Shown: positions 1 through 16,776 of the stretch, one piece after another
Layout: each line of letters opens with the position of its first letter
Numbering within the stretch: the first letter of the stretch is position 1
Virus record (IMG/VR): IMGVR_UViG_2671180427_000015
Coordinates: 1 to 19,461 of that record
Source: a virus
Taxonomy: Duplodnaviria; Heunggongvirae; Uroviricota; Caudoviricetes
Length of the DNA stretch: 19,461 nucleotides
Direction: 5' to 3' (one strand)
Notes under the pieces: generated by a model
What the model was told of the DNA's origin: nothing
Database searches by the model: none
What the model saw: only the letters and a program-made list of their open reading frames with translations
Program-made: the position numbers and the translations under genes

Positions 1-159
1 CACATCACCTTCTGCTGCAATCGCCTGCATCAGGGTATAAGGGGTTATGGCCACCGGACTACCAAACGGCTGCCAGCCCTCTTTCAGTTTGTGTGTCAGC
101 TTTTCCGCAAGATCTGACGGCGACGCCGCCCTGACAACATCATAATGTTTAATCGACAT
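1..159 (-). CDS. Hypothetical prophage late-region protein, 5' part only (53 codons; runs off the window start)
   Basis: Minus-strand ATG at 157..159 preceded by GGGAGAA Shine-Dalgarno; open to window edge; translation MSIKHYDVVRAASPSDLAEKLTHKLKEGWQPFGSPVAITPYTLMQAIAAEGDV. Not in the ORF track because it is incomplete. Confidence 0.5.
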   Translation of the reverse strand, partial: MSIKHYDVVRAASPSDLAEKLTHKLKEGWQPFGSPVAITPYTLMQAIAAEGDV

Positions 160-702
160 CGAATTTCTCCCGTGTACAGGAACAGAGTTAAAAAGCCGGA
201 ACCGGAATCAAATCACAGGATGACCATCTGCCAGTGGCAGGTCATAAAAAAAAGGCCGCGCCATGCGCAGCCAGAACTCACAAGGAAAATGATAGAAGGA
301 AATAACATTAGTGATGTACGCATGGCGCCTCCCGCTAAGTTCTGCAATGATCAAACAGAACTCGCTACGTGCCCTTAAAACTCGATCATTTAGCCCCTCC
401 AAGGAGGATTCACCATGCGGTTGGTTTTTTAATAAACAGTAAACAAAAAAGTCAAGAATTATTCATTCTGTTCTTTCATCATCGGCCACAGCAATACCAC
501 AATGCCGCAGACCAGAGCGCCATCAGTCAGTACCAACATTATCCTGCTGGTGAAATCCATCATCACCATCACTAAAAGCAGGATCACAACAGCAAGCAGA
601 CACAGTTTATAAAACAATGTTCAGAAAACGCATTCAGCATGCCTAAGGTTCTATTCCTACGAATAGCCAACTTGCAACTTAAAATATTATTTATGCAGCC
701 AA

Positions 703-1461
703 TTAAATTCTGGTCCTTACAATATCAACCTGAAGATTCTTATCTTGTGCTGATTGATAAATCACAAACCTTTTACTACCTGCATTGAAAGAAGTAGACA
801 AAACCAGACAATTATCATAACGAGCAAGAACATAATACCAACCATCATTATAATTAATCATTTCATATTCTTTCTTAAACTGTGGTTTGTAATATCCTGT
901 CAGAAATGAAAAAAGCCAGAAATATGCCACAAAAGCAATCATCACAATCTCAAAAAAATGTTTTTTTATAAATGGCTTATCATAGAAGCATGATACCGAT
1001 AAAAATCGCCCATAAGATCTTATCGAAATTGTAACCGCCAGCGCAATCGCTGCTGACAGTAGCAAAAGAGGTACCTGAATCTTCTGTCTCAATATAGAAA
1101 ACTCAATAATTGCCGGCACAAACAATAATTCCACAGCAAAATAAAGGCGAAATACATTTAGCTCTTGCATAGAATGTTTTCTTTTCACTGCGAAAAAGAA
1201 TACAACACCAATACCCCAACCGATAAGAAATATAGCAATGACGATAACTGCAAAAAATAAACTTCTGGCAACATCATCAACACCTGCACCTACAATCCAC
1301 CATGGGAAGCCGTAGTAAAAAGAAGTACCCCATCCATAGAAATAAGCACTCCCCCATCCAAGGCATCCCATGTAGGCAATAAAAAGTGAAGAACTCCTGA
1401 GCAGCGCACCATCCTTCATAACCACCCCAATACAAGATGATAACATTGGCTTACAACTCAT
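703..1461 (-). CDS. Polytopic inner-membrane protein of unknown function (about 5 hydrophobic helices plus a ~60-aa soluble C-terminal tail); moron in the late operon
   Basis: 252-aa ORF in markedly AT-rich DNA just downstream of Q/pR' on the same strand; several long hydrophobic stretches (e.g. LFFAVIVIAIFLIGWGIGVVFFFAV, FFEIVMIAFVAYFWLFSFL). No clear Shine-Dalgarno at the first ATG; true start may be an internal Met (e.g. MKDGALL). Confidence 0.55.
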   Translation of the reverse strand: MSCKPMLSSCIGVVMKDGALLRSSSLFIAYMGCLGWGSAYFYGWGTSFYYGFPWWIVGAGVDDVARSLFFAVIVIAIFLIGWGIGVVFFFAVKRKHSMQELNVFRLYFAVELLFVPAIIEFSILRQKIQVPLLLLSAAIALAVTISIRSYGRFLSVSCFYDKPFIKKHFFEIVMIAFVAYFWLFSFLTGYYKPQFKKEYEMINYNDGWYYVLARYDNCLVLSTSFNAGSKRFVIYQSAQDKNLQVDIVRTRI

Positions 1462-1627
1462 AACAAAAGCAATTCAATGCCGTCAAGAGGTTACAGGCTA
1501 AAAAAACTCTATTACATTGCAGTCAGCATGTTTACTACACAAATACAATTCAGAGCATAAAAACTACTCGGCGGCAGGTTATTGAGACTCATCAATGACA
1601 TGTAAAAAACGCCCATTATTGGTGTCA

Positions 1628-1656
1628 AGTTTCCCCAAAGTTATTCAAAAAGTCAA
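1628..1656 (-). promoter_or_regulatory. pR'-like late promoter with Q-utilisation region
   Basis: Minus strand reads TTGACT-17 nt-GAAACT then TTGACACCAATAATGGGCG, collinear with my recollection of lambda pR' (TTGACT...TAAATT TTGACTCAACGATGGG); lies 40 nt downstream of the Q stop. The -10 hexamer is degenerate. Confidence 0.45.
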
Positions 1657-1698
1657 TATTATGCCGTTAATATGTTGCCATCCGTGGCAATCATGGCG

Positions 1699-2322
1699 CT
1701 AACGTGTGATCGCATTCAAAATGTTGTCTGCGATTGACTCTTCCTTGTGGCATTGCACAACCAGAGCGTCATACAGCGGCTTAACAGTGCGTGACCAGGT
1801 GGGTTGGGTAAGGTTTGGGATTAGCATCGTCACAGCGCGATATGCGGCGCTTGCTGGCATTCTTGAATAACCGACGCCTTTACATCTTCCGCACTCTTTC
1901 TCAGCAACTATCCCCCACTGCTCTGTTTTGGCTATATCAACCGCACGGCCTGTACCGTGGCAATCTCTGCATCTTGCGCCCGGCGTAGCGGCACTACGGC
2001 AATAATCCGCATAAGCGAATGTTGCGAGCACTTGCAGTACCTTTGCCTTAGTATTTCCTTCAAGCTTTGCCACGCCACGGTATTTCCCCGATACCTTGTG
2101 TGCAAATTGCATCAGATAGTTGATAGCCTTTTGTTTGTCGTTCTGGCTGAGTTCGTGCTTACCACAGAATACAGCCATTCCGAATCCGGCTTGTGATTGC
2201 GCCATCCCCATAGCAGCCATCACATCAGTACCGGAAAGAGAGTCAGAAGCCGTGGCCCGTGGTGAGTCGCTCATCATCGGGCTTTTTGGCGAATGAAATT
2301 TAGCTACGCTTTCGAGTCTCAT
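1699..2322 (-). CDS. Q: Late-gene antiterminator Q
   Basis: 207-aa translation matches recalled lambda Q over its length; sits immediately upstream of the pR'-like promoter and overlaps the ninI stop by 4 nt. Confidence 0.9.
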
Positions 2323-2984
2323 GCGCCTTCTCCCTGTACCTGAATCAATGTGAGATTTCCGCAGAACACTGCCCCAGTATCGATATACATCTGGTTGGCA
2401 AATTTGAGTGGTTTCACTGCTGGCGTATGACCAAAGATAAACGTGTCCGCGCCTTTAATTTCTTTAACGATCCCGTCTTGTGAGTTGCTGATTCGTTCGC
2501 GGTTCCAGATTACCTGCTGATGATCAACTGGCTTTCCAAATTCGTATTCGTCACAAGGATAATCGGCGTGGCAGATGACATATTTTTTACCTTTGCTCAC
2601 CAGTTCGATGATTAACGGAAGTTCTTCTGCTTTATGGGCAAGAGCTTTAGCCAGAATTTCTTTGTCGTAATCGAGATTAAAGAACCAGCCACCGCCATTA
2701 AGCAGCCAGTGATTAACGTTTCCACGCTCTGATAAGCCATCAATCATCATTTGCTCATGGTTTCCACGTACAGCTCTGAACCAGGGGAATGTGATTAATT
2801 CCAGGCATTCAACGTTCTCTGCACCACGATCAACCAAATCGCCCACCGAGATAAGCAGGTCTTTTTTGTTGTCGAATCCAATCGTATCCAGTTTGTTCAT
2901 CAGGTTCGTGTAGCATCCGTGCAGATCGCCAACTACCCAAATATTTCGGTATTTGCTGCCATCAATTCTTTCGTAGATATTCAT
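2319..2984 (-). CDS. ninI: NinI (Nin221) Ser/Thr protein phosphatase
   Basis: 221 aa; PPP-family metallophosphatase motifs visible in translation (GDLHG, GDLVDRG, GNHE); matches recalled lambda NinI. Confidence 0.9.
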
Positions 2985-3595
2985 GCAGCCTCACTTCTGC
3001 TGTTTCGCAGTTTTTTAAGTTTCTGTTGATACTCCGCCTTGATGGTCCTGCACTCTTCGACAGTCCAGCGATGGCGGTTATGGTTTGATTCGATTTCGTC
3101 TACTGCTTCCTGCCCGATGCGGCTAATCAGTTCGACGCGATACGGAACGAGATTTCCGCTTTTGTGCTGGTTGCACACCACGCATTGCTTGTGAATATTG
3201 CGTTCATCAAATCGGAGTTGAGGTGCCGCAGCAGTTGTCCGGTAATGTCCGGCATCCCACTGAGCAGACGTGAGCGTTCCGCACGAGATACATGGTAAGT
3301 CGCGGTCTCTTTCTCTGATGAAGGCGTTTACGGCTTGTTGGGCTTGTTTAATCCAGTAACTGCGGGGCTTTAAGGCGAGTTTTCGAATCTTAAGTTTATC
3401 TTTCTGTTTCTGCTCCTCTCGTCGTCGTTTCTTCTCTGCTGCTTTTTCCGCTTTTTCGCGTTCTTTACTTCGTCGTTCGAGTGCTATCTTGGTTCCACAC
3501 TCTGGAGAGCACCACCACTGATTAGCGAATGCAGGGTGAAACCATTCCCGACATTCATCGTTTTTACATCGTCTTCGCGCTGGTTTAGCCATCAT
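2981..3595 (-). CDS. ninG: NinG (Rap) recombination-associated structure-specific endonuclease
   Basis: 204 aa, Cys-rich N-terminus and lysine/glutamate-rich linker; matches recalled lambda NinG. Directly abuts ninI, so lambda ninH is absent. Confidence 0.9.
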
Positions 3596-3755
3596 CTTCT
3601 TCCTCGTGCATCGAGCTATTCGAATCGCTCATCAGCTCTGCACAGCAGTGCTCACACACGTGAACTTCCAGCACATGCAGCTTCTGACCGCAATTAGCGC
3701 ACGTTAAAGCCCGCTCGACGCTTTCTTGTTCGTAACTTCGATTTGGGTCAATCAC
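3585..3755 (-). CDS. ninF: NinF-like small protein
   Basis: Translation ...[37 protein letters not shown]... matches recalled lambda NinF. Start placed at GTG 3753..3755 (GAGGA 8 nt upstream, GTGA overlap with ninE stop); the longer ORF to 3797 is the alternative. Confidence 0.65.
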
Positions 3756-3934
3756 CTTGTATTCCTCGCACGATGTCTTAGCCACCGGATATCCCACAGG
3801 TGAGCCGTGTAGTTGAAGGTTTTTACGTCAGATTCTTTTGGGATTGGCTTGCGTTTATTTCTGGAGCGTTTCGTTGGAAGGTATTTGCAGTTTTCGCAGA
3901 TTATGTCGGTGATGCTTCGTCGCTGTCGTCTCAT
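3752..3934 (-). CDS. ninE: NinE-like protein
   Basis: 60-aa translation [60 protein letters not shown] matches recalled lambda NinE; start chosen inside the 90-aa track ORF, overlapping the methyltransferase stop. Confidence 0.8.
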
Positions 3935-4458
3935 GCAGCCCTCCTGACGCCCTGCCCGATCGCCATCAATGCCGCTTTGGATACGGTAGTAAACATCCGT
4001 CGAGGACTGATGAACGGTCGCCAAATCAGCAGCATGGAGCCTTTGCTGTTTCCCTTCTTCTCCAGCCCTGTCGATGGTTCGATAAAATTAATCCGTCCAT
4101 CAGTGATAATACGAACTTCGTCAACACTCTCCAGAGCCTTGCTGAACCATCCGACAGACATATCCTCTGGCACAAGCATCACTACCGTCTGTCGCTGTTG
4201 TATACACTGCTCAGCGGCTTTTTCCACCCACGGCCTGATATTGCTGTACGGTGGGTTATTCCAGATTGCACCGTGGCTTACCCACTCAGAATTGAGCGCG
4301 TCGTCGTCCTCAGTTAGCCAGTGAGCGCACAGAGCGTTTTTGTCGCTCGCTGCCGAATCCAGCCAGAATCCAAACTCAATATCCAGTGCATCAAAAAGCC
4401 AAAGCGGCGTTTGCCAGCAGTCCTTGTCGTGTGCTGGCGTATTTGATTTGATAGTCAT
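3931..4458 (-). CDS. Orphan phage Dam-like DNA N6-adenine methyltransferase (occupies the lambda ninC/ninD position)
   Basis: Translation contains the N6-adenine MTase catalytic motif NPPY ([10 protein letters not shown]) and a WQTPxxLF-type N-terminal motif; start at ATG 4456..4458 in an ATGA overlap with the ninB stop. Confidence 0.7.
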
Positions 4459-4895
4459 GCAGCCCGATCTCCCCATCGCGCTTTCCATTCGAGAGCCAGT
4501 CGCGCTTCGTCTGACCACTTAACGCCACGCTCTGTACCGAATGCCTGTATAAGCTCTAATAGCTCCGCAAATTCGCTTACACGCATCCTGCTGGTTGACT
4601 GGCCTATTACCACAAAGCCATTCCCGGCAAGGTTAGGAACAACATCCTGCTGCTTTAATGCTGCGGTAAACACACACTTCCAGCTTTCTGCATCCAGCCA
4701 GCGACCATGCCATTCAACCTGACGAGAGACGTCACCTAAGCAGGCCCATAGCTTCCTGTTTTGGTCTAAGCTGCGGTTGCGTTCCTGAATGGTTACTACG
4801 ATTGGTTTGGTTGGGTCTGGAAGGATTTGCTGTACTGCGTGAATAGCGTTTTGCTGATGTGCCGGAGATCGAATTTCAAAGGTTAGTTTTTTCAT
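4455..4895 (-). CDS. ninB: NinB (Orf) recombination mediator
   Basis: 146 aa from MKKLTFEIRSPAHQQ..., matching recalled lambda NinB; GGAGAGGG Shine-Dalgarno upstream; the track ORF begins 6 codons earlier. Confidence 0.85.
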   Translation of the reverse strand: MKKLTFEIRSPAHQQNAIHAVQQILPDPTKPIVVTIQERNRSLDQNRKLWACLGDVSRQVEWHGRWLDAESWKCVFTAALKQQDVVPNLAGNGFVVIGQSTSRMRVSEFAELLELIQAFGTERGVKWSDEARLALEWKARWGDRAA

Positions 4896-4901
4896 GACTT
4901 C

Positions 4902-4932
4902 CCTCTCCCCCAAATAAAAAGGCCTGCGATTA
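4902..4932 (-). terminator. Intrinsic terminator, tR2-like, between ren and ninB
   Basis: On the minus strand a GC-rich 7-8 bp stem (GGCCTGC/GCAGGCC, loop GGTAATC) followed by TTTTTATTT. Confidence 0.6.
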
Positions 4933-4968
4933 CCTGCAGGCCTGTGATTAGCTCAGTGATGTAGATGG

Positions 4969-5259
4969 TCATCTTTTAACTCCATATACCGCCAATATCC
5001 GTTTCATCGTGGCACTCTGGCGACACTCCTTAAAAATCAGGTTCGTGCTCATCTTTCCTTCCCGTTCTTCCTTGGTAGCAAACCGGTAATACACCGTTCG
5101 CCAGACCTTACCTTCGATAACCAGAAGACCTGCCCGTGCCATTTTAGCCGCGGCCTGATTTATGCTGGTTACTGTTGCGCCTGTTAGCGCGGCAACGTCC
5201 GGCGCACAGAAGCTATTATGCGTCCCCAGGTAATGAATAATTGCCTCTTTGCCCGTCAT
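4969..5259 (-). CDS. ren: Ren
   Basis: 96-aa translation matches recalled lambda Ren; positioned between P and tR2/ninB. Confidence 0.85.
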   Translation of the reverse strand: MTGKEAIIHYLGTHNSFCAPDVAALTGATVTSINQAAAKMARAGLLVIEGKVWRTVYYRFATKEEREGKMSTNLIFKECRQSATMKRILAVYGVKR

Positions 5260-5957
5260 ACACTTGCTCCTTTCAGTCCGAACTTAGCTTTAATTTCTGC
5301 GATCTTCGCCAGCGCCTGAACACGATTTAGAGGTCTGCCGCCCATGACAGGAAGTTGTTTTATTGGTTCAGGTATCGTCTCACCACGGTTAATTCGCGCT
5401 GTCATACAGGTCAGTTCATCGGCAGCCTTGCGTCGTAATTCCGCGTCAGTCAGCGCATTGGCCCGCATGTTCTGGTACAGGTTGGTAACCAGCCAGTAGT
5501 GCGCGTTCGATTTCCACGGATAAGACTCTGCATCCGGATACAGGCCTCGCTTCCGGCAATACTCGTAAACCATATCAACCAGCTCGCTGACGTTTGGCAG
5601 TCCGGCGATAACGGATGCTTCTTCCCGGCACCATGCAACAAACTGCCCGGGTGATGGCAGAAATGGTCGATTCTGCCGACGGGCTACGCGCATTCCTGCG
5701 TTAACCTGTTCCATTGTGGTGATCCCGTTTTCCCGGAAAGCCAGAACCCACTGGCGGCGGATTTCGTTCAGTTCGTTCTGGTCACGGTTAGCCAGGCTCG
5801 CCGGGAAAGTTGCCAGTAACTGGCTGAACACACCGTTGATGATCTGCGCTACCTGCTGTACCTGAGGCTTTTCGTCGTACTGTTCCGGCATGTTGTTGGC
5901 GATCCGACGCATCTGCTCACGGTCAAAGTTAACCATCTGTGCGGCGATGTTTTTCAT
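5256..5957 (-). CDS. P: Replication protein P (DnaB helicase loader)
   Basis: 233-aa translation matches recalled lambda P; 4-nt overlap with O stop. Confidence 0.9.
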   Translation of the reverse strand: MKNIAAQMVNFDREQMRRIANNMPEQYDEKPQVQQVAQIINGVFSQLLATFPASLANRDQNELNEIRRQWVLAFRENGITTMEQVNAGMRVARRQNRPFLPSPGQFVAWCREEASVIAGLPNVSELVDMVYEYCRKRGLYPDAESYPWKSNAHYWLVTNLYQNMRANALTDAELRRKAADELTCMTARINRGETIPEPIKQLPVMGGRPLNRVQALAKIAEIKAKFGLKGASV

Positions 5958-6853
5958 AAATCCACCCCGTAAATCCAGTCAGTGTTTGTCAGGTCGAGTT
6001 TTGGTTTGCAGGCTGTCACGCCTGCCTGTTGCTTGTTACGGTTGATTTCGAGCTGGGTCCACTTGTCGCGGAGTTTGGCCGGGCTCAGCACGTTACCGGA
6101 CCAGAAGTTGTCCTGGCATGCCCAGCGGAACAGTACACACATGTCGCGATGGTTACGTCCGTCACGTTCACGCATCAGGCGGATATCGTTAGCCCACCCT
6201 GCAAAATTCGGTTTTCTGGCTGATGGCGCGATGGTCTTCACCATGTCAAACATCCACTCTGCGGCGGTCAGATCTTCTGCTGTCCCCCACCTGCTGCCGC
6301 TCTGAATTGCAGCATCTGGTTTCTCCACAGAAAGATCGTTTTCTGGCTGGTCAGAGGATTCGCCTGAATTCTCTGACGAATAATCTTTTCTTTTTTCTTT
6401 TGTAATAGTGTCTTTTGTGTCCCCCTGTTTTGAGGGATAGCAATCCCTCAATTTGAGGGATGTTTTATCCCTCGTTTTAGGGGATTTTCCCTCGTTTTGA
6501 GGGATACACCATTCTGAGATGTTTTTATTTGGTCCAAACATGCCGCCTTGCTGCTTGATAATATTCATTCTGACGAGTTCTAACTTGGCTTCATTGCACC
6601 GTTTGACGGGTAACTTTGTAATCTCGCTAAGTTGAGAATCGGTGATTCTGTCCATTGGTTTATTCCACCCATAGGTTTTACGCAGAATGGCAAGCAGCAC
6701 TTTAAACTGTCGCTTGGTCAGATCTGCGCCTGAATAAGCCTCAAGCAGCATATTTGATAGTCTGACGTAACCATCATCGAGATCTGCCACATTACGCTCC
6801 TGTTCGGCAAAGTTACCTCTGCCGAAGTTGAGTATTTTTGCTATATTTGTCAT
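5954..6853 (-). CDS. O: Replication initiator O
   Basis: 299-aa translation matches recalled lambda O; contains ori iterons internally. Confidence 0.9.
   Translation of the reverse strand: MTNIAKILNFGRGNFAEQERNVADLDDGYVRLSNMLLEAYSGADLTKRQFKVLLAILRKTYGWNKPMDRITDSQLSEITKLPVKRCNEAKLELVRMNIIKQQGGMFGPNKNISEWCIPQNEGKSPKTRDKTSLKLRDCYPSKQGDTKDTITKEKRKDYSSENSGESSDQPENDLSVEKPDAAIQSGSRWGTAEDLTAAEWMFDMVKTIAPSARKPNFAGWANDIRLMRERDGRNHRDMCVLFRWACQDNFWSGNVLSPAKLRDKWTQLEINRNKQQAGVTACKPKLDLTNTDWIYGVDL
6379..6506. repeat. Origin of replication (ori lambda type): four iterons plus adjacent AT-rich segment inside the O gene
   Basis: Four tandem ~20-bp units each containing an inverted TCCCTC...GAGGGA pair between about 6418 and 6506, flanked at 6379..6417 by a T-rich stretch (TCTTTTCTTTTTTCTTTTGTAATAG). 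Confidence 0.8.
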
Positions 6854-6885
6854 AATGACTCCTGTGGATTGATCCAGTAATTCCC

Positions 6886-7182
6886 TCAGAATTGCATATC
6901 AATTTGCTTAAAATCCTCGGTGGCAGCCGGGGATTTTTTCTTTGTGATTTCATCAAGCGCATACTTAAAAGCCCTGCTAATCGGACTGATGTCTGATGCC
7001 ATTCCGAAAGCACACAAGACCGAAGCAATAAATCTCCAGTCCGTTCTGCTTATCTTCGATTCATGACAGCCAATCATCTTTGCCAAACCGCGCTGTGTAA
7101 GCGTTGATAGGTTGATGAGTAAATCTGTTTCTGCGCGATCAACGTCACGCTGTGATAGTTTGCTGTAACTTGTTCGTTCCAT
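6886..7182 (-). CDS. CII-family lysogeny transcriptional activator (not the lambda allele)
   Basis: 98 aa; C-terminal ...KKKSPAATEDFKQIDMQF resembles lambda CII C-terminus (...KKRPAATERSEQIQMEF); located directly downstream of cro and nutR. Confidence 0.7.
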   Translation of the reverse strand: MERTSYSKLSQRDVDRAETDLLINLSTLTQRGLAKMIGCHESKISRTDWRFIASVLCAFGMASDISPISRAFKYALDEITKKKSPAATEDFKQIDMQF

Positions 7183-7268
7183 TTCTTAATATTTCCAATA
7201 GTGAATTGTTAGTTGACAGGTATGCGTGGAAACGCATATGGCCTTAGTTGGTCAGATATCTTGGGACT

Positions 7269-7313
7269 CGCTTTTCAGCGACGTAGGACGAATGTCCGTT
7301 GTTACAAAGAGCG
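7269..7313 (-). promoter_or_regulatory. nutR-like N-utilisation site (boxA plus boxB hairpin)
   Basis: Minus strand reads CGCTCTTTGTAACAA (boxA-like) then, 18 nt later, CGCTGAAAAGCG (short stem with GAAAA-containing loop), between cro and cII. Confidence 0.5.
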
Positions 7314-7323
7314 GCTCCGCTTA

Positions 7324-7539
7324 TTAAGCGGCTTTGTGTTCCGGCGGGAACACGTCATCAAGACTTACTTTTGCGCCTAACTTGTTTAGGCACGCAACAA
7401 GAGCACGGCATGTTTTAAGGTCTGGGAAGCGACGACCAGATTCCCAATGTCCGATAGCTCCCTGTGTGCATCCAACTGCTTTAGCAAGTTTCGTTTGAGA
7501 GATATTCAGTGACTCTCGATATTTTCGTAGGTTGCTCAT
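7324..7539 (-). CDS. cro: Cro-like HTH repressor (not the lambda allele)
   Basis: 71 aa from internal Met (MSNLRKYRESLNISQTKLAKAVGCTQGAIGHW...) with GGAGGA Shine-Dalgarno at 7543..7548; divergent from cI across an operator region. The 128-aa track ORF would overlap the operators and cI. Confidence 0.75.
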   Translation of the reverse strand: MSNLRKYRESLNISQTKLAKAVGCTQGAIGHWESGRRFPDLKTCRALVACLNKLGAKVSLDDVFPPEHKAA

Positions 7540-7570
7540 ATGTCCTCCGTAGTAACCACGAATAAAAAAA

Positions 7571-7639
7571 TACAATATGTACTCACCAAACACAAGTAAA
7601 AATACATATTGTGCATGGATGGTTCCAGTACAGAGCGTA
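7571..7639. promoter_or_regulatory. Right operator/promoter region (candidate OR sites with divergent pR and pRM)
   Basis: Three related 11-bp elements of form TAC-N5-GT(A/G): TACAATATGTA (7571..7581), TACATATTGTG (7603..7613), TACAGAGCGTA (7629..7639), lying between divergent cro and cI starts. Confidence 0.5.
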
Positions 7640-7656
7640 ATAATAAGGATATGAAA

Positions 7657-8310
7657 ATGAAATGGTATGAACTGGCTAGATCCAGAATGAAAGAGCTCGG
7701 CATAACTCAAGAGAAGTTAGCCGAAGAGCTAGGTATGACGCAGGGTGGAATTGGACACTGGTTGCGCGGATCTCGTCATCCATCTCTTAGTGATATTGGT
7801 GTGGTGTTTAAATACCTTGGTATTGATAACATATCATTCAACCACGACGGGACATTTTCACCTGTTGGCGAATACTCATCGGCCCCAGTTAAAAAACAAT
7901 ATGAGTACCCTGTTTTTTCTCATGTTCAGGCTGGGATGTTCTCTCCAGAACTCAGAACCTTTACCAAAGGCGATGCGGAGAGATTGGTAGGCACAACCAA
8001 AAAAGCCAGTGACTCTGCATTCTGGCTTGAGGTTGAAGGTAACTCAATGACCGCACCAACAGGTTCCAAACCTAGTTTTCCTGACGGGATGTTAATTCTG
8101 GTTGACCCTGAGCAAGCTGTTGAGCCCGGCGATTTCTGCATAGCCAGACTTGGTGGTGATGAATTTACCTTCAAGAAACTGATCAGGGATAGCGGTCAGG
8201 TGTTTCTACAGCCACTAAACCCACAATACCCAATGATCCCATGCAATGAGAGTTGTTCCGTTGTTGGGAAAGTTATCGCTAGTCAGTGGCCTGAAGAGAC
8301 GTTTGGGTGA
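7657..8310 (+). CDS. cI: CI prophage repressor, mosaic: non-lambda N-terminal HTH domain fused to lambda-type S24 (LexA-like) C-terminal domain
   Basis: C-terminal ~130 aa ([19 protein letters not shown]...EVEGNSM...FKKL...[12 protein letters not shown]) matches recalled lambda CI; N-terminal ~85 aa is unrelated to lambda CI. Start placed at ATG 7657 (AAGGA 7 nt upstream); the track ORF starts at 7609. Confidence 0.85.
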
Positions 8311-8380
8311 TGAAGGGCTAAATGTCTCCTAATAAAAACAGCAATCATTTGAAATTATTAATAATTATAGAGGTTTAGTC

Positions 8381-9379
8381 TTGGAAATCAGCACGGCGGT
8401 TATTCATTCCGAAGAAGATGCTTTGCGTTTTGTTGAGATGTACATCGCTGGGCAAGATCTTCCTGATGGAATATCATTTGAAGGGTGGCCTAACTTAACC
8501 TTCCGTCTTACTGGTGACAAATTTCATGGCAGTTTGACTCCTTCTGTCATGAAGGGTTTTGTTGAAATGCAGGCCCAAATAAACCGAGCTTATGCATTGT
8601 TAAAGTACGGAGTTCCTGACCCAAGAAAGCTTTCAAAAGAAGAGAAGGAAGCTATCGAAATTCAGGTGAATGTTGAGAATGGCTCGTCCTTGATAGAAGT
8701 TAATATGGATGGGTTCATGGGTGAGGTTATACAAACTGCGGTGAGTAAAGTGGGCCCTCAAGAGATCGTTATTACAGTTTTAGGGGTCGCTCTTATATGG
8801 GGCGGCGTCGTCCTATTCAAAAAATACCTAGAAGACCGCAAAGAGATTCGCATGGCAGAAGTAAAAAGCGAGTCTGAGCGTGAACACCTTGCGACCATGC
8901 GCTTCATGTCTGAGCAGGAAACAAAACGAAGTGAATTATTGACTCAGATTATTAGCGAAAAACCCAAGCTAGACAACATGGAAAGACTTGCTCATGACGC
9001 AAAAACCGACATAGTTAAATCATTTGTCAAGGCTGATACAGCTCAGATTGATGGCGTTGTATTGGATGCAGATCTATCCAAAACCCTCACTACAAATGCA
9101 AGGCGGAAATCAATGGAGATCCGCCTTGATGGAAATTATCGCATTGAAAAGGTTGACTCCACTGATCCAGAGAGCTTCAAAGTGCAAGTGAGAAATGTTG
9201 ATTCCGATCTAAGAATATCGTGCATAGTACAAGATGTTTTTCTCGACGCATCCGAGCATAAAAAAGCTCTTCAGCAAGCTGAGTGGGATAGAAAACCAGT
9301 TCATTTGTCAATCAACGCAAAAGAACTAGATGGTGAAATAAAGTCCGCGATAATACTTTATGTCAAAGAGATAACATAA
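8381..9379 (+). CDS. Immunity-region cargo protein of unknown function with one central hydrophobic helix (in the position lambda uses for rexA-rexB)
   Basis: 332-aa ORF with TTG start 7 nt after AGAGG; AT-rich; 70 nt downstream of cI on the same strand and followed by an intrinsic terminator; hydrophobic segment IVITVLGVALIWGGVVLF mid-protein; no similarity to RexA/RexB that I can recognise. Confidence 0.6.
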   Translation: MEISTAVIHSEEDALRFVEMYIAGQDLPDGISFEGWPNLTFRLTGDKFHGSLTPSVMKGFVEMQAQINRAYALLKYGVPDPRKLSKEEKEAIEIQVNVENGSSLIEVNMDGFMGEVIQTAVSKVGPQEIVITVLGVALIWGGVVLFKKYLEDRKEIRMAEVKSESEREHLATMRFMSEQETKRSELLTQIISEKPKLDNMERLAHDAKTDIVKSFVKADTAQIDGVVLDADLSKTLTTNARRKSMEIRLDGNYRIEKVDSTDPESFKVQVRNVDSDLRISCIVQDVFLDASEHKKALQQAEWDRKPVHLSINAKELDGEIKSAIILYVKEIT

Positions 9380-9386
9380 TCCTCAT

Positions 9387-9412
9387 CCCGGCCTCAGCGC
9401 CGGGTTTTCTTT
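9387..9412 (+). terminator. Intrinsic terminator ending the cI-cargo transcription unit
   Basis: CCCGGC-CTCAGC-GCCGGG hairpin followed by TTTTCTTT, 8 nt after the ORF stop. Confidence 0.6.
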
Positions 9413-9601
9413 GCCTCACGATCGCTTCACCTAAAAACACATAACCAATTGTATTTATTTGAAAATAAATAGATACAACTCACTAAACCACGCAATTCTG
9501 ATCTCTCCTTACATCGCCGAGGCAATACACCCATGCTAAAAAACAATACTATTAAATACAAAGCGTTGTAAAAAACCACCTCGTTTTAAGAACAAATTGT
9601 A

Positions 9602-9630
9602 TTGATAAAGCAAAATACATATCGTACTAT
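9602..9630 (+). promoter_or_regulatory. pL-like promoter with overlapping operator
   Basis: TTGATA -17 nt- TACTAT; the element TACATATCGTA (9616..9626) matches the OR-type TAC-N5-GTA sites and overlaps the spacer/-10. Confidence 0.45.
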
Positions 9631-9676
9631 TTAACCATCAGCAGGACGCTGGAAGCCAAACGGAACAAACTGGCAG

Positions 9677-9722
9677 GCTCTTTAAACAACGTCGAACTCT
9701 CGACTACGTGGCTGAAAAGCCA
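9677..9722 (+). promoter_or_regulatory. nutL-like site (boxA plus boxB hairpin)
   Basis: GCTCTTTAAACAA (boxA-like) followed 19 nt later by TGGCTGAAAAGCCA (4-bp stem, TGAAAA loop), upstream of N. Confidence 0.5.
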
Positions 9723-9819
9723 GATCACCCAACCACATGAGCTGTGGGATGCAATGCCGAAGCAACCGTCTAGGAGTAGCTTCGAGATTGCATCGCCAAA
9801 GTTTATTCGGGAGGAATCT

Positions 9820-10092
9820 ATGTCCAGAAAAACAGAATTTAAAGGCACCGCAGCTTCTCGCCGTAGAGCTCGTCGCGCAAATCTGCAAAGTCAGGAGGCG
9901 ATTAGCTCCGACAAACTACACAGGCCAACCCCCTCACGAGTGGTCTTGCAATGCAAACGCAAACCAGCAATGAGAGCAGAAGTAATAACACTGACAACGT
10001 TGACCAGAAAATATGAAGGCTCAACTTGTCTTCCAAATGTAGCTCTTTACGCGGCAGGCTACAGGAAATCAAAACAACTGACAGCAAGGTGA
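9820..10092 (+). CDS. N: N-like transcription antiterminator (arginine-rich motif; not lambda N)
   Basis: 90 aa from ATG 9820 (GGGAGG upstream); N-terminal arginine-rich motif GTAASRRRARRANLQ; first gene after pL/nutL. C-terminus resembles what I recall of the P22 gene 24 product, but that recollection is unverified. Confidence 0.7.
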   Translation: MSRKTEFKGTAASRRRARRANLQSQEAISSDKLHRPTPSRVVLQCKRKPAMRAEVITLTTLTRKYEGSTCLPNVALYAAGYRKSKQLTAR

Positions 10093-10150
10093 CTTGTGTT
10101 GATCGCCAGAAAATGAAATTAGGCATCAAACCACTTATTTGAGGTGATAT

Positions 10151-10237
10151 ATGGAAGAAGAATTTGAAGAGTTCGAAGAGCATCCTCAGGATGTGATGGA
10201 ACAATACCAGGACTATCCTTATGACTACGACTATTGA
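10151..10237 (+). CDS. Small acidic protein, lambda orf28-like
   Basis: 28 codons (MEEEFEEFEEHPQDVMEQYQDYPYDYDY) with GAGGTG Shine-Dalgarno; overlaps the ral start as lambda orf28 does. Confidence 0.5.
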   Translation: MEEEFEEFEEHPQDVMEQYQDYPYDYDY

Positions 10238-10445
10238 TAAAAATCAATGGTGTGGACAATTCAAGCGATGCAATGGATGCAAGCTGCAATCGGAATGCAT
10301 GGTTAAGCCTGAAGAAATGTTTCCTGTAATGGAAGATGGGAAATATGTCGATAAATGGGCAATACGAACGACGGCAATGATTGCCAGAGAACTTGGTAAA
10401 CAGAACAACAAGGCTGCCTGGTGGTGGCCTTTATTTTTGGCATAA
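10221..10445 (+). CDS. ral: Ral restriction-alleviation protein
   Basis: First 66 aa match recalled lambda Ral (MTTTIDKNQWCGQFKRCNGCKLQSECM...); this ORF reads on for 8 more codons (WWWPLFLA) before the stop. Confidence 0.8.
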   Translation: MTTTIDKNQWCGQFKRCNGCKLQSECMVKPEEMFPVMEDGKYVDKWAIRTTAMIARELGKQNNKAAWWWPLFLA

Positions 10446-10603
10446 ACAACAGAATAAACACTGCACTGTGTATTCATTCCAACAAGTGAATACACGGAGC
10501 AATGTCGCTCGTAACCAAACAGGAGCCGACTTGTTCTGATTATTGGAAATCTTCTTTGCCCTCCAATATGAGGGCGATTTTTTATCTGTGAGGATATGAA
10601 CAG

Positions 10604-10972
10604 ATGTCAAACATCAAAAAATACATCATTGATTACGACTGGAAAGCATCAATAGAAATTGAAATCGACCATGACGTAATGACAGAGGAAAAACTTCACC
10701 AGATTAATAATTTCTGGTCAGACTCTGAATACCGACTCAATAAACACGGCTCTGTATTAAATGCTGTATTAATCATGCTGGCGCAACATGCTCTGCTTAT
10801 AGCAATTTCAAGCGACTTAAATGCATATGGTGTTGTGTGTGAGTTCGACTGGAATGATGGAAATGGTCAGGAAGGATGGCCTCCAATGGATGGTAGTGAA
10901 GGAATAAGAATTACCGATATCGATACATCAGAAATATTTGATTCAGATGATATGACTATCAAGGCCGCCTGA
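10604..10972 (+). CDS. ea10: Ea10 (Ssb)-like early protein
   Basis: 122-aa translation matches recalled lambda Ea10 in size, position (between ral and cIII) and sequence. Confidence 0.7.
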   Translation: MSNIKKYIIDYDWKASIEIEIDHDVMTEEKLHQINNFWSDSEYRLNKHGSVLNAVLIMLAQHALLIAISSDLNAYGVVCEFDWNDGNGQEGWPPMDGSEGIRITDIDTSEIFDSDDMTIKAA

Positions 10973-11044
10973 GCGCGGCGTTACCGCATACCAATTACGC
11001 TTCACTCGAGGCGTTTTTCGTTATGTATAAATAAGGAGCACACC

Positions 11045-11209
11045 ATGCAATATGCCATTGCAGGGTGGCCTGTTGCTGGCTGCCCTTCCGAATCTTTACT
11101 TGAACGAATCACCCGTAAATTACGTGACGGATGGAAACGCCTTATCGACATACTTAATCAGCCAGGAGTCCCAAAAAATGGATCAAACAATTATGGCTAT
11201 CCAGACTAA
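11045..11209 (+). CDS. cIII: CIII (FtsH/HflB protease inhibitor)
   Basis: 54-aa translation [54 protein letters not shown] with AAGGAG Shine-Dalgarno; not in the ORF track (<60 aa). Confidence 0.85.
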   Translation: MQYAIAGWPVAGCPSESLLERITRKLRDGWKRLIDILNQPGVPKNGSNNYGYPD

Positions 11210-11321
11210 ATTCACTATCGCCACTTTTATTGGCGATGAAAAGATGTTTCGTGAGGCCGTCGACGCTTATAAAAAATGGATATTAATACTGAAACTGAGA
11301 TCAAGCAAAAGCATTCACTAA
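11178..11321 (+). CDS. kil: Kil (host cell-division inhibitor)
   Basis: 47-aa translation [47 protein letters not shown], the in-frame 3' part of the 89-aa track ORF; overlaps the cIII 3' end as in lambda. Confidence 0.8.
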
Positions 11322-11396
11322 CCCCCTTTCCTGTTTTCCTAATCAGCCTGGCATTTCGCGGGCGATATTTTCACAGCCATTTTCAGGAGTTCAGCC

Positions 11397-11693
11397 ATGA
11401 ACGCTTATTACATTCAGGATCGTCTTGAGGCTCAGAGCTGGGCGCGTCACTACCAGCAGATCGCCCGTGAAGAGAAAGAGGCAGAACTGGCAGACGACAT
11501 GGAAAAAGGCCTGCCCCAGCACCTGTTTGAATCGCTATGCATCGATCATTTACAACGCCACGGGGCCAGCAAAAAAGCCATTACCCGTGCGTTTGATGAC
11601 GATGTTGAGTTTCAGGAGCGCATGGCAGAACACATCCGGTACATAGTTGAAACCATTGCTCACCATCAGGCTGATATTGATTCAGAGGTATAA
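11397..11693 (+). CDS. gam: Gam (RecBCD inhibitor)
   Basis: 98-aa translation matches recalled lambda GamS; CAGGAG Shine-Dalgarno. Confidence 0.9.
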
Positions 11694-11698
11694 AACGG

Positions 11699-12484
11699 AT
11701 GAGTACAGCACTCGCAACGCTGGCAGGGAAGCTGGCTGAACGTGTCGGCATGGATTCTGTCGACCCACAGGAACTGATCACCACTCTTCGCCAGACGGCA
11801 TTTAAAGGTGATGCCAGCGATGCGCAGTTCATCGCATTGCTGATCGTCGCCAACCAGTACGGCCTTAATCCGTGGACGAAAGAAATTTACGCCTTCCCTG
11901 ATAAGCAGAACGGCATTGTTCCGGTGGTGGGCGTTGATGGCTGGTCCCGCATCATCAATGAAAACCAGCAGTTTGATGGCATGGACTTTGAGCAGGACAA
12001 TGAATCCTGTACATGCCGGATTTACCGCAAGGACCGCAATCATCCGATCTGCGTTACCGAGTGGATGGATGAATGCCGCCGCGAACCATTCAAAACCCGC
12101 GAAAGCAGAGAAATCACGGGGCCGTGGCAGTCGCATCCCAAACGGATGTTACGGCATAAAGCCATGATTCAGTGTGCCCGTCTCGCCTTCGGATTTGCTG
12201 GTATCTATGACAAGGATGAAGCCGAGCGCATTGTCGAAAATACCGCATACACTGCAGAACGTCAGCCGGAACGCGACATCACTCCGGTTAACGATGAAAC
12301 CATGCAGGAGATTAACACTCTGCTGATTGCCCTGGATAAAACATGGGATGACGACTTATTGCCGCTCTGTTCCCAGATATTTCGCCGCGACATTCGCGCA
12401 TCGTCAGAACTGACACAGGCCGAAGCAGTGAAAGCTCTTGGATTCCTGAAACAGAAAGCCACTGAGCAGAAGGTGGCTGCATGA
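11699..12484 (+). CDS. bet: Bet (Red-beta single-strand annealing protein)
   Basis: 261-aa translation matches recalled lambda Bet throughout. Confidence 0.95.
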
Positions 12485-13161
12485 CACCGGACATTATCCT
12501 GCAGCGTACCGGAATCGACGTGAGAGCTGTCGAACAGGGGGATGATGCGTGGCACAAATTACGGCTCGGCGTCATCACCGCTTCAGAAGTTCACAATGTG
12601 ATAGCAAAGCCCCGCTCAGGAAAGAAGTGGCCTGACATGAAAATGTCCTACTTCCACACCCTGCTGGCTGAGGTTTGCACCGGTGTGGCTCCGGAAGTTA
12701 ATGCTAAGGCGCTGGCCTGGGGAAAACAGTACGAGAACGACGCCAGAGCCCTGTTTGAGTTCACTTCCGGCGTGAATGTTACTGAATCCCCGATCATCTA
12801 TCGCGACGAAAGTATGCGCACCGCCTGCTCTCCCGATGGTTTATGCAGTGACGGCAACGGCCTTGAACTGAAATGCCCGTTTACCTCCCGGGATTTCATG
12901 AAATTCCGGCTCGGTGGTTTCGAGGCCATAAAGTCGGCTTACATGGCCCAGGTGCAGTACAGCATGTGGGTAACGCGAAAAGATGCCTGGTACTTTGCCA
13001 ACTATGACCCACGAATGAAGCGTGAAGGCCTGCATTATGTCGTGGTTGAGCGGGATGAAAATTACATGGCGAGTTTTGACGAGATGGTGCCGGAGTTCAT
13101 CGAAAAAATGGACGAGGCACTGGCTGAAATTGGTTTTGCATTTGGGGAGCAATGGCGATGA
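12481..13161 (+). CDS. exo: Exo (Red-alpha 5'-3' exonuclease)
   Basis: 226-aa translation matches recalled lambda Exo; 4-nt overlap with bet. Confidence 0.95.
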
Positions 13162-13340
13162 AGCATCCTCACGATAATATCCGGGTAGGCACGATCACTT
13201 TCGTCTACTCCGTTACAAAGCGAGGCTGGGTATTTCCCGGCCTTTCTGTTATCCGAAATCCCCTGAAAGCACAGCGGCTGGCTGAGGAGATAAATAATAA
13301 ACGAGGGGCTGTATGCACAAAGCATCTCCTGTTGAGTTAA
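13158..13340 (+). CDS. orf60a: orf60a-like protein
   Basis: 60 aa from the second in-frame ATG (ATGA overlap with exo stop); matches recalled lambda orf60a. Confidence 0.6.
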
Positions 13341-13504
13341 GAACGAGCATTGAGATGGCACATAGCCTTGCTCAAATTGGAGTCAGGTTTGTGCCAATAC
13401 CAGTAGAAACAGACGAAGAATTTCATACGTTAGCCACATCCCTTTCACAAAAGCTGGAAATGATGGTGGCGAAAGCAGAAGCAGATGAGAGAGACCAGGT
13501 ATGA
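13313..13504 (+). CDS. orf63: orf63-like protein
   Basis: 63-aa ORF in the lambda orf63 position; sequence consistent with recollection. Confidence 0.6.
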   Translation: MHKASPVELRTSIEMAHSLAQIGVRFVPIPVETDEEFHTLATSLSQKLEMMVAKAEADERDQV

Positions 13505-13580
13505 CAACCACGGAATGCATTTTTCTGGCAGCGGGCTTCATATTCTGTGTGCTTATGCTTGCCGACATGGGACTTGTTCA

Positions 13581-13796
13581 ATGACACCTCAGCAGGAAAA
13601 CGCCCTTCGCAGCATTGCCCGTCAGGCTAATTCTGAAATCAAAAAAGCCAGACAGCAGTTTCCGGATAAAAACGTCGATGACATTTGCCGTAGCGTACTG
13701 AAGAAGCACCGCGAAACGGTAACGCTGATGGGATTCACACCGACTCATTTAAGCCTGGCAATCGGCATGTTAAACGGCGTCTTTAAGGAACGATGA
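13581..13796 (+). CDS. orf61: orf61-like protein
   Basis: 71 aa from MTPQQENALRSIARQANSEIKKARQQF...; placed at the internal ATG, which overlaps (ATGA) the stop of a 27-codon upstream ORF. Confidence 0.55.
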   Translation: MTPQQENALRSIARQANSEIKKARQQFPDKNVDDICRSVLKKHRETVTLMGFTPTHLSLAIGMLNGVFKER

Positions 13797-13817
13797 ACAT
13801 GAAAAGCAAAATCATCA

Positions 13818-13842
13818 GGGAGCTACAGGCTCCTTTTTTATT
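13818..13842 (+). terminator. Intrinsic terminator (tL-type) after orf61-like
   Basis: GGGAGC-TACAG-GCTCC(U) hairpin followed by TTTTTTATT. Confidence 0.55.
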
Positions 13843-13894
13843 ATTCGCATTCACCCTCAAGCGTATTAACCAACAATTCAGGGATTAATGGAAG

Positions 13895-14116
13895 ATGGCA
13901 GACATCATTGATTCAGCATCAGAAATTGAAGAATTACAGCGCAACACAGCAATAAAAATGCGCCGCCTGAACCACCAGGCTATATCTGCCACTCATTGTT
14001 GTGAGTGTGGCGATCCGATAGATGAACGAAGACGCCTGGTCGTTCAGGGTTGTCGGACTTGTGCAAGTTGCCAGGAGGATCTGGAGCTTATCAGTAAACA
14101 GAGAGGTTCGAAGTGA
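13895..14116 (+). CDS. TraR/DksA-family C4 zinc-finger protein
   Basis: 73 aa with two CxxC pairs (CCECG...CRTCASC) in the spacing typical of the TraR/DksA zinc finger. Confidence 0.65.
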   Translation: MADIIDSASEIEELQRNTAIKMRRLNHQAISATHCCECGDPIDERRRLVVQGCRTCASCQEDLELISKQRGSK

Positions 14117-14520
14117 GCGAAATTAACTCTCAGGCACTGCGTGAAGCGGCAGAGAAAGCCGGTGAAGATAAGTGGCAGGCTAAAAAAATAAATGGTGATT
14201 TTTTCGTTATTCGTCACGGTAGTTATACAAGACAGCATGGCTACACATCGTATCAACCCATTGCGGAGATTGATTGTAAGCCAGTCCGGGATTTTGTTGC
14301 CAAGGCTAATCCGGCTACCGTGCTGGAATTACTGGATGAACTGGAAGCAGCAAAAAAGCGCATTGCAGAACTGGAAGCGCGGGAAATACTGCTCCCGGAA
14401 CGTAGCAGCATGCTTCATCGAACAGATTTTCACGATGATTACCAAACGGTAATGGCATACAAAGTTTCTGAAGTCATCGATGCAATCCGCGCTACTGGCA
14501 TTCGCATCAAAGGAGAGTGA
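14113..14520 (+). CDS. Ea22-like protein (shorter than lambda Ea22)
   Basis: GTG start in a GTGA overlap with the upstream stop, GAGAGG Shine-Dalgarno; N-terminus MSEINSQALREAAEKA... and C-terminus ...GIRIKGE agree with recalled lambda Ea22 termini; central coiled-coil-like LELLDELEAAKKRIAELEARE. Confidence 0.6.
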   Translation: MSEINSQALREAAEKAGEDKWQAKKINGDFFVIRHGSYTRQHGYTSYQPIAEIDCKPVRDFVAKANPATVLELLDELEAAKKRIAELEAREILLPERSSMLHRTDFHDDYQTVMAYKVSEVIDAIRATGIRIKGE

Positions 14521-14521
14521 G

Positions 14522-15277
14522 ATGATTCACTACCACGGTGGGCCTATTACTCCTGATACGTGCGCAATGAGAGCATGGAAAGGGCGACATGCGTTTATCA
14601 GTTTTGCGCATTCAGGCCAGATCAATCTCGCGGCTGAATACTGTCAGTCGTTCGCGCTGGACAACGGTGCATTCACCGCCTGGAAAGCAGCTGGCAAAAA
14701 CAAAATCGACTGGAGCGATTACTACGAGTTTGTTGCTCGCTGGAAGAATCACCCAGGATTCGATTTTGCCATTATCCCGGATATTATTGATGGCGGAGAG
14801 GAGGAAAATGATGCGCTTCTGAATGAGTGGCCTCACGGAAAACTAGCTGGCGTTCCAGTGTGGCACATGAATGAAAGTGACGCGCGATTTATTCATTTGT
14901 GCAATGAGTTTCCGCGAGTGGCTATCGGTAGTTGTGGCGACTATGACGTAAAGCGCCCAACTCTTGCGGTAGCCAGAATGAAAGACCTGATTCGTCACAT
15001 TGTTGATGGGCATGGTCAGCCGGTTACGAAACTACATGGATTGCGCATGTTAAATCCGCTGATATTCACAAAATTACCCTTAGCCAGCGCAGATAGTACG
15101 AACGTCGCTCGAAACATCGGTATTGATAAAGCCTGGTCTGGGGCTTATGCACCTGCAAGTAAAGAGACACGCGCAGCATTAATGGTAGAACGGATTGAGG
15201 CACACAATAGCCCTGGTTCTCTTGCGTATTGTGAACAACGCGACCGCTTTGAAATGCAATTGCAACTAGCAGTTTAA
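14522..15277 (+). CDS. Candidate queuine tRNA-ribosyltransferase-fold protein (DpdA-like 7-deazaguanine DNA transglycosylase candidate)
   Basis: 251 aa from ATG 14522 (AGGAG 6 nt upstream). Five collinear segments resemble recalled E. coli Tgt motifs: LDNGAF (TDSGGF), FAIIPD (MIFDEC), VAIGS (YAVGG), LHGLRML (YLMGVG), ADSTNVARN (FDCVMPTRNARN). No zinc-binding C-terminal subdomain. Functional call unverified. Confidence 0.5.
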   Translation: MIHYHGGPITPDTCAMRAWKGRHAFISFAHSGQINLAAEYCQSFALDNGAFTAWKAAGKNKIDWSDYYEFVARWKNHPGFDFAIIPDIIDGGEEENDALLNEWPHGKLAGVPVWHMNESDARFIHLCNEFPRVAIGSCGDYDVKRPTLAVARMKDLIRHIVDGHGQPVTKLHGLRMLNPLIFTKLPLASADSTNVARNIGIDKAWSGAYAPASKETRAALMVERIEAHNSPGSLAYCEQRDRFEMQLQLAV

Positions 15278-15287
15278 GGACTAACAA

Positions 15288-16085
15288 ATGACCACTATTA
15301 CCAAAGAACGTATTGAATTGTTCATTAAAAATCCGCTTGAAAACGGGCTTACTCGTGGCGAACAAATGGAACTGGCACGAATTGCACTGGCATCACTGGA
15401 ACGCGAACTGATTCGCCACGAGCATGCCAAATGGTCTGACTCCACATTTGGCTGCGTTGGCCCCATTGGTCCACTGAAACACCTCTCAAAAGAGGCTCTG
15501 GAAGCCGCAGCCGAACCAGACGATCTCAGCTAGTGGGCTGATATGCATTTCCTGTTGTGGGATGCACAGCGCCGTGCTGGCATCAGCGATGCTGAAATTA
15601 CCGCTGCTATGGAAGATAAATTGAAGATCAACATGGAGCGCCAGTGGCCTGAACCAAAAGATGGTGAGCCTCGCTTGCACATTAAAGAACCCGGCAACTC
15701 TCCGGTAATTCCGGATGGTTTATCCACGGTATGCGCTGAGGCTTATCAGGTTGTAGGAGTTATGGCAGATGCGCTTGGTGTATTCGGTGATGCAGCAGTA
15801 CAGAAAGTTCTGGATAACCTGTCACAGCAAAAACTTGTTCACAGAGATGTGCTGCCGTTCTCGCTTCCGGTGACTCCGGATGGTTGGATAAGCTGTAGTG
15901 AGCGAATGCCGAAAGAAACGGGTGACATTATTGTTGTTTCGGATGGCATTGTAATGTCCGGGATTTCTTATTCTCGTCGTGACGGGTTCTATATAGCCGC
16001 ATTGGAGTACGACGACGATGAGCCAATTGGCGGTGTAACCCACTGGATGCCTCTACCAGAACCGCCTCGATTAAAGGAGCTATAA
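15288..16085 (+). pseudogene. MazG-like NTP pyrophosphohydrolase / DUF551 reading frame interrupted by an in-frame amber codon (TAG 15531..15533)
   Basis: Track ORFs 15288..15533 and 15543..16085 are in the same frame, separated by TAG plus three sense codons; a MazG-like helix pattern (...EALEAAAEPDDLS * WADMHFLLWDAQRRAGISDAEITAAMEDKLKINMERQW) spans the stop; C-terminal ...HWMPLPEPP is DUF551-like. No convincing Shine-Dalgarno before the downstream ATG. Confidence 0.5.
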
Positions 16086-16199
16086 TAGTGAACTATTATA
16101 TCTATTTGTATTAAAAGAGTTTTTATAAAATAAATCTCCCAAAGCATGTAAAAACACTGTTAATCTTAACGTGTGTGAAACGTGAAGAGAGGTGTTGAA

Positions 16200-16481: not shown

Positions 16482-16501
16482 TAATATGAACAAGTAACTA
16501 T

Positions 16502-16557
16502 CCTCGCACTCGCGGGGATTTCTTTTATCTGAACTCGCTACGGCGAGTTTTGTTTTA
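16502..16557 (+). terminator. Two tandem intrinsic terminators after the Ea8.5-like gene
   Basis: CCTCGC-ACTC-GCGGGG followed by ATTTCTTTT (16502..16526), and AACTCGC-TACG-GCGAGTT followed by TTGTTTT (16532..16557). Confidence 0.5.
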
Positions 16558-16569
16558 TGGCGATGATAA

Positions 16570-16737: not shown

Positions 16738-16752
16738 TGGCGGTTTTTTCTT
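16729..16752 (+). terminator. Intrinsic terminator immediately upstream of xis
   Basis: GCCGCC-TGAT-GGCGG(T) hairpin followed by TTTTTTCTT. Confidence 0.55.
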
Positions 16753-16776
16753 GCGTGTAATTGCGGAGACTTTGCG

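Follow-up and report, generated by a model that had tools for sequence, protein, structure and literature searches.

Why would a lambda-family prophage carry a DNA adenine methyltransferase of its own, and does that gene belong with others to a set of anti-restriction functions? The question is raised by the nin region of IMG/VR virus record IMGVR_UViG_2671180427_000015, of which positions 1 to 19,461 were analysed (this 19,461-nucleotide stretch is called the window below). The initial annotation had noticed here an orphan Dam-like methyltransferase and, together with the restriction-alleviation gene ral and a TGT-like open reading frame (ORF) considered a candidate DpdA, had read it as a sign of selection for evading host restriction-modification. 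The window corresponds to the early region of a mosaic prophage of the lambda family at attB-lambda, reversed with respect to the lambda map. Taken as a whole, the evidence makes it very probable that the methyltransferase gene, dam, encodes a common lambdoid GATC methylase that would be made as a delayed-early protein and top up the methylation of progeny DNA, with ral and the DpdA homolog lying in separate, unlinked modules.

As first proposed, the slot of lambda ninC/ninD holds an N6-adenine methyltransferase gene with an NPPY motif, and its ORF is intact and flanked by ninB and ninE (Table 1). It encodes 175 amino acids from an ATG, stop-free. The product aligned end to end with Pfam PF05869 'Dam' (E 3.7e-65, 219 bits against a cutoff of 28, 167 of 169 profile positions) and scored 266 bits against the NCBIfam equivalog TIGR01712, 'phage N-6-adenine-methyltransferase' (cutoff 97), and its best PADLOC match was 'orphan methyltransferase'. 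The NPPY motif occupies residues 68-71 (nucleotides 4257..4246) and was invariant across 50 homologs. The protein has the S-adenosylmethionine-dependent methyltransferase fold and consists of the N6-adenine methyltransferase catalytic core without a target-recognition domain. Translation starts at the ATG at 4458; a longer version from a GTG (to 4518) gains nothing but residues beyond the profile. ORFs on the opposite strand over dam gave no family match, and no solved structure in the PF05869/TIGR01712 family was detectable by sequence. The claim that no restriction endonuclease lies next to the methylase also held, the neighbours being NinB and NinE, which likewise flank dam in phage 434, VT2-Sakai and E. 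coli genomes; no cognate restriction or defence model was found among the window ORFs tested (PADLOC, Pfam and NCBIfam on unassigned ORFs).

The nearest characterised relative is M.EcoVT2Dam of the Shiga toxin (Stx) 2 phage VT2-Sakai (BAA94133; also 933W L0094 and phi24B dam), which is also 175 residues long and identical at 174 of them. The NPPY motif, the ninB-dam-ninE position and the ATGA overlap at the ninB/dam junction are common to both, whereas residue 51 is alanine in the VT2 enzyme and aspartate here, and the carrier is an Stx phage in one case and a lambda-type phage at attB-lambda in the other. The nin region of phage 434 (CPT_434_58 to CPT_434_63) has the same order, ninB-dam-ninE-ninF-ninG-ninI, and a Dam 98% identical to the one here; it differs in having no ral, with a Nun-like gene after N instead, and no TGT-like gene in the exo-xis region. 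The founding members of PF05869, HP1 Dam and T1 Dam, belong to the same Pfam and TIGRFAM family, a similarity noted in the VT2-Sakai record, but are distant in sequence and sit in unrelated phage backbones.

Lambdoid nin regions vary by exchange of modules at conserved gene boundaries, and the ends of dam fit this pattern. The TGA stop of ninB overlaps the dam ATG as ATGA, and the dam stop overlaps the ninE ATG in the same way. An identical 11-nucleotide sequence is found at both junctions, forming a direct repeat with a spacing of 524 nucleotides, and the same dam junctions are present in 434 and VT2-Sakai. In a prophage without dam, a near-identical 11-nucleotide sequence forms the direct junction between ninB and ninE. 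A repeat at both ends of the gene, matched by the junction left where the gene is missing, points to a module swapped at a conserved gene-boundary sequence, and dam thus behaves as a presence/absence cassette bounded by that sequence.

This cassette is widespread. At a nucleotide identity of at least 95%, dam turned up in 244 phage records; among 5426 complete E. coli genomes, 1566 (29%) carry it, Nissle 1917 and the type strain included. Those E. coli copies all lie between NinB and NinE under the RefSeq name 'phage N-6-adenine-methyltransferase', making dam one of the commonest lambdoid accessory genes. The methylase is thus already known and routinely annotated, and neither it nor Ral is novel.

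The target of the methylase can be predicted from its relatives. M.EcoVT2Dam has been reported as GATC-specific (Radlinska & Bujnicki 2001, as cited in PMC6602927), and near-identity to that enzyme suggests that the dam product here methylates the A of GATC. In the single-molecule real-time methylome of the Shiga toxin-producing E. coli strain 95NR1, which has two 99%-identical dam copies, no motif was recorded beyond GATC, CTGCAG and CRARCAG. The prophage itself gave no signal of GATC avoidance or clustering: its 60 sites correspond to an observed/expected ratio of 0.67, within the spread of other four-nucleotide palindromes.

The surroundings of dam suggest when it would be made. A terminator-like hairpin lies upstream of it at the tR2 position, where a terminator is also annotated in phage 434. 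From this hairpin and the start/stop overlaps, dam can be assigned to the delayed-early part of the pR operon that depends on N; by this anatomy its product should appear in the lytic cycle, with delayed-early timing, after antitermination of pR transcription by N. Dam would then top up GATC methylation of fast-replicating phage DNA, a role that follows from the failure of host Dam to keep pace with phage replication: in lambda and P22, replication outruns the host enzyme and leaves the virion DNA under-methylated (PMC8022706). In hosts with little or no Dam, full methylation could shield progeny DNA from methylation-sensitive nucleases that cut GATC and, going by established Dam biology, it would remove the hemimethylated sites on which MutH and SeqA act. 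Topping up the methylation of progeny DNA is the best-supported mechanism and the most likely role of this GATC methylase.

Several points weigh against this account. The allele in the window departs from M.EcoVT2Dam at residue 51 (aspartate for alanine), and its GATC activity is a prediction. The GATC assignment of M.EcoVT2Dam itself reportedly came from over-expression followed by DpnI/MboI digestion, a design blind to relaxed specificity. Detection of the related phi24B dam in cultures of lysogens (PMC3342100) means that dam may be expressed outside the lytic cycle as well. The biological benefit proposed for Dam is one that we infer, and reviews have called the role of phage Dam enzymes still unclear (PMC7556043). 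What a phage gains from a second GATC methylase is a general question, not one peculiar to this window.

One alternative is that Dam mainly regulates the phage life cycle, through the stability of lysogeny or the frequency of induction, the timing of replication, or by holding back mismatch repair while Red/NinB recombination is under way, and is not chiefly a protection from nucleases. Stx phage 933W reportedly depends on host Dam to remain a stable lysogen (Murphy et al. 2008, as cited in PMC3342100), and the presence of phi24B dam in lysogen cultures points the same way. P1 packaging requires Dam methylation, and dam in the window sits among the recombination genes ninB and ninG. Dam over-production also blunts strand discrimination by MutH, which would suit such a role. 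Yet the sequence offers no specific regulatory target, the GATC sites of the prophage being neither clustered nor unusually depleted, and many close relatives dispense with dam altogether. We regard life-cycle control as possible but doubtful, and retain methylation of progeny DNA as the more probable function.

The TGT-like ORF reported initially is present, with phrog_887 as its best family (E 6e-102), and it encodes a 251-amino-acid protein. As a single sequence it had no match in Pfam, NCBIfam or PDB sequences; a profile of 54 diverse homologs also gave no match to PDB sequences, and neither the protein nor any of the 54 homologs matched the Pfam TGT family (PF01702) at E <= 1. Its relationship to DpdA emerged from profile comparison: phrog_887 is also the best PHROG of the DpdA proteins of CAjan and phage 7-11, and the TGT-like profile aligned to CAjan DpdA, a validated dPreQ0 DNA transglycosylase, with a probability of 99% over 175 columns (hhalign, E 8.8e-18). 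The motifs LDNGAF/LDSGAF (LDxGAF), DG, KLH and S(A/C)DS align between the two proteins. Residues D47, H172 and D191 were invariant in the 54 homologs, and D47, D90, H172 and D191 align to identical residues of CAjan DpdA; by order and strand position, D47, D90 and D191 are probably equivalent to D95, D130 and D256 of the S. Montevideo DpdA structure (PDB 7UI4). The TGT-like protein is therefore a credible DpdA homolog and a predicted transglycosylase.

Homology to phage DpdA thus stood up, and what is known of modification in its relatives is less encouraging. The protein is 92% identical to that of SPN3UB and 35% to that of 7-11, and it shares with the singleton DpdA phages (SPN3UB, SfI, HK106, BTP1 and 7-11) its standing as the sole 7-deazaguanine gene in the stretch examined, here the window. 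SPN3UB, SfI, HK106 and BTP1 are listed as 'DpdA-only' phages by Hutinet et al. 2019 (PMC6884629), who warned that singleton DpdA clusters may have diverged in function. Phage 7-11, the only gamma-proteobacterial DpdA-only member measured, had 2'-deoxy-7-amido-7-deazaguanosine (dADG) at just 0.02% of G (PMC6884629). We found no report in the literature consulted on the modification status of lambdoid DpdA-only members, nor any of 7-deazaguanine modification in a lambdoid or other temperate coliphage.

The TGT-like protein also differs from the characterised enzymes in several respects. A TIM-barrel fold, tentatively predicted here, may be common to it and to the CAjan and S. Montevideo DpdA proteins, but these are longer (306 and 413 amino acids), and the gene in the window has no preQ0 pathway genes and no DpdB partner alongside. 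The CxCxxC...H structural zinc site conserved in bacterial DpdA and TGTs (PMC10164549) is missing, cysteines 14, 41, 127, 138 and 237 forming no such motif. E. coli makes preQ0, and no que genes of the preQ0 pathway were found in the 19.5-kb window; an active TGT-like protein would need preQ0 from the host to exchange guanines in DNA. Distant homologs adjoin a QueD gene in Caulobacter phage DMCA and a DUF165 gene in Rhizobium phage RHph_N3_2, DUF165 being the YhhQ preQ0-transporter family. Such a neighbourhood links the TGT-like proteins to 7-deazaguanine metabolism.

The protein may instead not modify DNA at all, and conjugate a 7-deazaguanine to protein, act on tRNA or be inactive. The best structural match of its predicted model was, slightly ahead of DpdA, Cap10, a protein of cyclic-oligonucleotide-based antiphage signalling systems that attaches 7-deazaguanine to protein (cf. 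bioRxiv 10.1101/2025.04.06.647259). No Cap9/QueC-like or CD-NTase partner is found in the window, however, and the confident alignment to a validated DNA enzyme, the conserved motifs (LDxGAF, DG, KLH and (A/C)DS) and the shared phrog_887 family all speak for a DpdA. We consider a target other than DNA, or loss of activity, a tentative alternative at most.

The gene is present in 204 of the 5426 E. coli genomes (3.8%), always annotated as 'hypothetical protein'. It is directly preceded by an Ead/Ea22-like gene and followed by a dATP/dGTP pyrophosphohydrolase-DUF551 gene, which is split by an in-frame amber TAG (15531..15533) where two related prophages with an intact gene have GAG. The order Ea22-like, TGT-like, pyrophosphohydrolase or DUF551 (14113..16085) is kept in three different prophage backbones, and the copy in the IAI39 prophage lies in a rightward operon just before the terminase genes. 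Such conservation of order could reflect either a functional module or mere positional linkage.

A stronger version of the DpdA assignment would make this singleton an active module that uses host preQ0 to place 7-deazaguanine in the DNA of induced lambdoid phages (or onto protein), so that with Dam and Ral it would provide real multi-layer protection. We judge this unlikely. Were DpdA-only genes to modify DNA via host preQ0, 7-deazaguanine modification would extend to temperate coliphages and their prophages, and the DpdA-like gene, carried by about 4% of E. coli genomes, is the sole component here with open biology, although that question too is not peculiar to the window.

Ral was correctly recognised at the outset, its product matching PF11058 over the full profile. 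As in lambda, it lies after N in the pL operon, and it is expected to promote type IA methylation of unmodified DNA as lambda Ral does. Ral is reported to act only on type IA systems, speeding the methylation of unmodified DNA (PMC12707154). The gene differs from lambda ral at its end, where the TGA TAG stops of its relatives have become TGG TGG, adding the eight C-terminal residues WWWPLFLA (10419..10445). It was found in 875 of the 5426 E. coli genomes (16%) and is standard lambda equipment.

Whether Dam, Ral and the DpdA homolog were accumulated by selection as a layered set for evading host restriction-modification, as originally suggested, can be weighed against these results. For each of the three, its family has been shown or proposed to counter restriction: Ral relieves type IA restriction (PMC12707154), and DpdA-dependent 7-deazaguanines protect phage DNA (PMC6884629). 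An orphan methylase expressed on exit from a cell is a recognised strategy, and the same trio occurs in at least one other genome, S1-CAM-01-C. The gene identities and the orphan status of the methylase held, but the inference of selection is weak. GATC is the site of host Dam, so the phage Dam would protect only against methylation-sensitive enzymes that cut GATC and would gain the phage little against restriction in E. coli. Distances of 6-10 kb separate the three modules in which the genes lie, and gene combinations varied among the five related phages and prophages on which assortment was judged. Phage 434 has dam only; lambda has ral only. In an O121:H19 prophage, ral and the TGT-like gene occur together and ninB runs straight into ninE. 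The IAI39 prophage, which lacks dam and ral, carries the TGT-like gene in a rightward operon and also has an MT-A70 methylase; S1-CAM-01-C, like the window, has all three. Each gene is also common by itself, and frequencies of 29%, 16% and 3.8% mean that occasional triple carriage is expected. The trace level of modification in the DpdA-only phage 7-11 counts against the third member of the set, and the stop loss in ral and the amber codon beside the TGT-like ORF do not suggest strong purifying selection on the region.

Among these five, the three genes therefore assort independently, and they sit in three separate mosaic modules, not in a linked system; lambdoid mosaicism fits better than a co-selected stack, which we consider distinctly improbable. 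With a long-known accessory methylase whose predicted specificity duplicates that of host Dam, and a textbook lambda Ral, the finding matters little in itself, and it shows nothing unusual in the prophage.

A wrong annotation of 'Dam', with RNA as its true substrate or with loosened specificity, is very improbable. The parallel would be an Stx-prophage 'DNA adenine methyltransferase' that actually methylates 16S rRNA (PMC10810198), but it does not apply, since that enzyme belongs to another family, MT-A70, with a DPPW motif and a position near int. Separately, the MT-A70 methyltransferase gene of the IAI39 prophage, of the same family as the 16S rRNA enzyme, adjoins int (5721..6371 of that prophage locus).

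The remainder of the window follows the lambda plan. From the ORF map and family scans, the minus strand carries Q, ninI, ninG, ninF, ninE, the methylase gene, ninB, ren, P, O, cII and a cro-like gene, and the plus strand a cI-type repressor gene, N, ral, a DUF2528 gene, cIII/kil, gam, bet, exo, the genes of the exo-xis region, xis and int. The host gene ybhC after int places the prophage at attB-lambda. In megablast searches against phages, lambda, 434 and lambda-like phages each matched several separate segments, adding up to 51-73% of the window, at ~97% identity, the usual mosaic pattern.

Table 1. Location of the genes and sequence elements discussed, in window coordinates.
Feature	Position	Strand	Match or remark
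ninE	3752..3934	-	PF05322, E 2.1e-43
11-nucleotide boundary sequence TCATGCAGCCC (GGGCTGCATGA on the coding strand)	3931..3941		dam/ninE junction
dam, phage N6-adenine DNA methyltransferase	3931..4458	-	PF05869 / TIGR01712; M.EcoVT2Dam ortholog
ninB (Orf recombination mediator)	4455..4895	-	PF05772, E 1.3e-54
11-nucleotide boundary sequence, second identical copy	4455..4465		ninB/dam junction
Terminator-like hairpin followed by a T run	4920..4943	-	between ren and ninB (tR2 position)
N	9754..10092	+	
ral (restriction alleviation)	10221..10445	+	PF11058, E 2.5e-48, residues 1-66 of a 66-position profile
Ead/Ea22-like gene	14113..14520	+	PF13935; directly upstream of the TGT-like ORF
TGT-like ORF	14522..15277	+	phrog_887; homolog of 'DpdA-only' gamma-proteobacterial phage DpdA
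dATP/dGTP pyrophosphohydrolase-DUF551 gene	15288..16085	+	two PF04447 halves in one frame; directly downstream of the TGT-like ORF

The sole Rfam match in the window at the gathering threshold was the lambda cIII thermoregulator element (11032..11090, plus strand, 88.5 bits). Directly 3' of the cI-type repressor gene, in the position of lambda rexAB, lies a 332-amino-acid ORF (8381..9379, plus strand) that matched only phrog_6191, of unknown function, and nothing in Pfam, NCBIfam or PADLOC; it is a candidate lysogen-expressed exclusion or defence gene. Downstream of Q, a 252-amino-acid ORF (703..1461, minus strand) occupies a stretch of 33-39% G+C, and its only match was phrog_1521, likewise of unknown function. 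Its product looks like a multi-pass membrane protein, and the low G+C content together with that single match gives the ORF the appearance of a moron.
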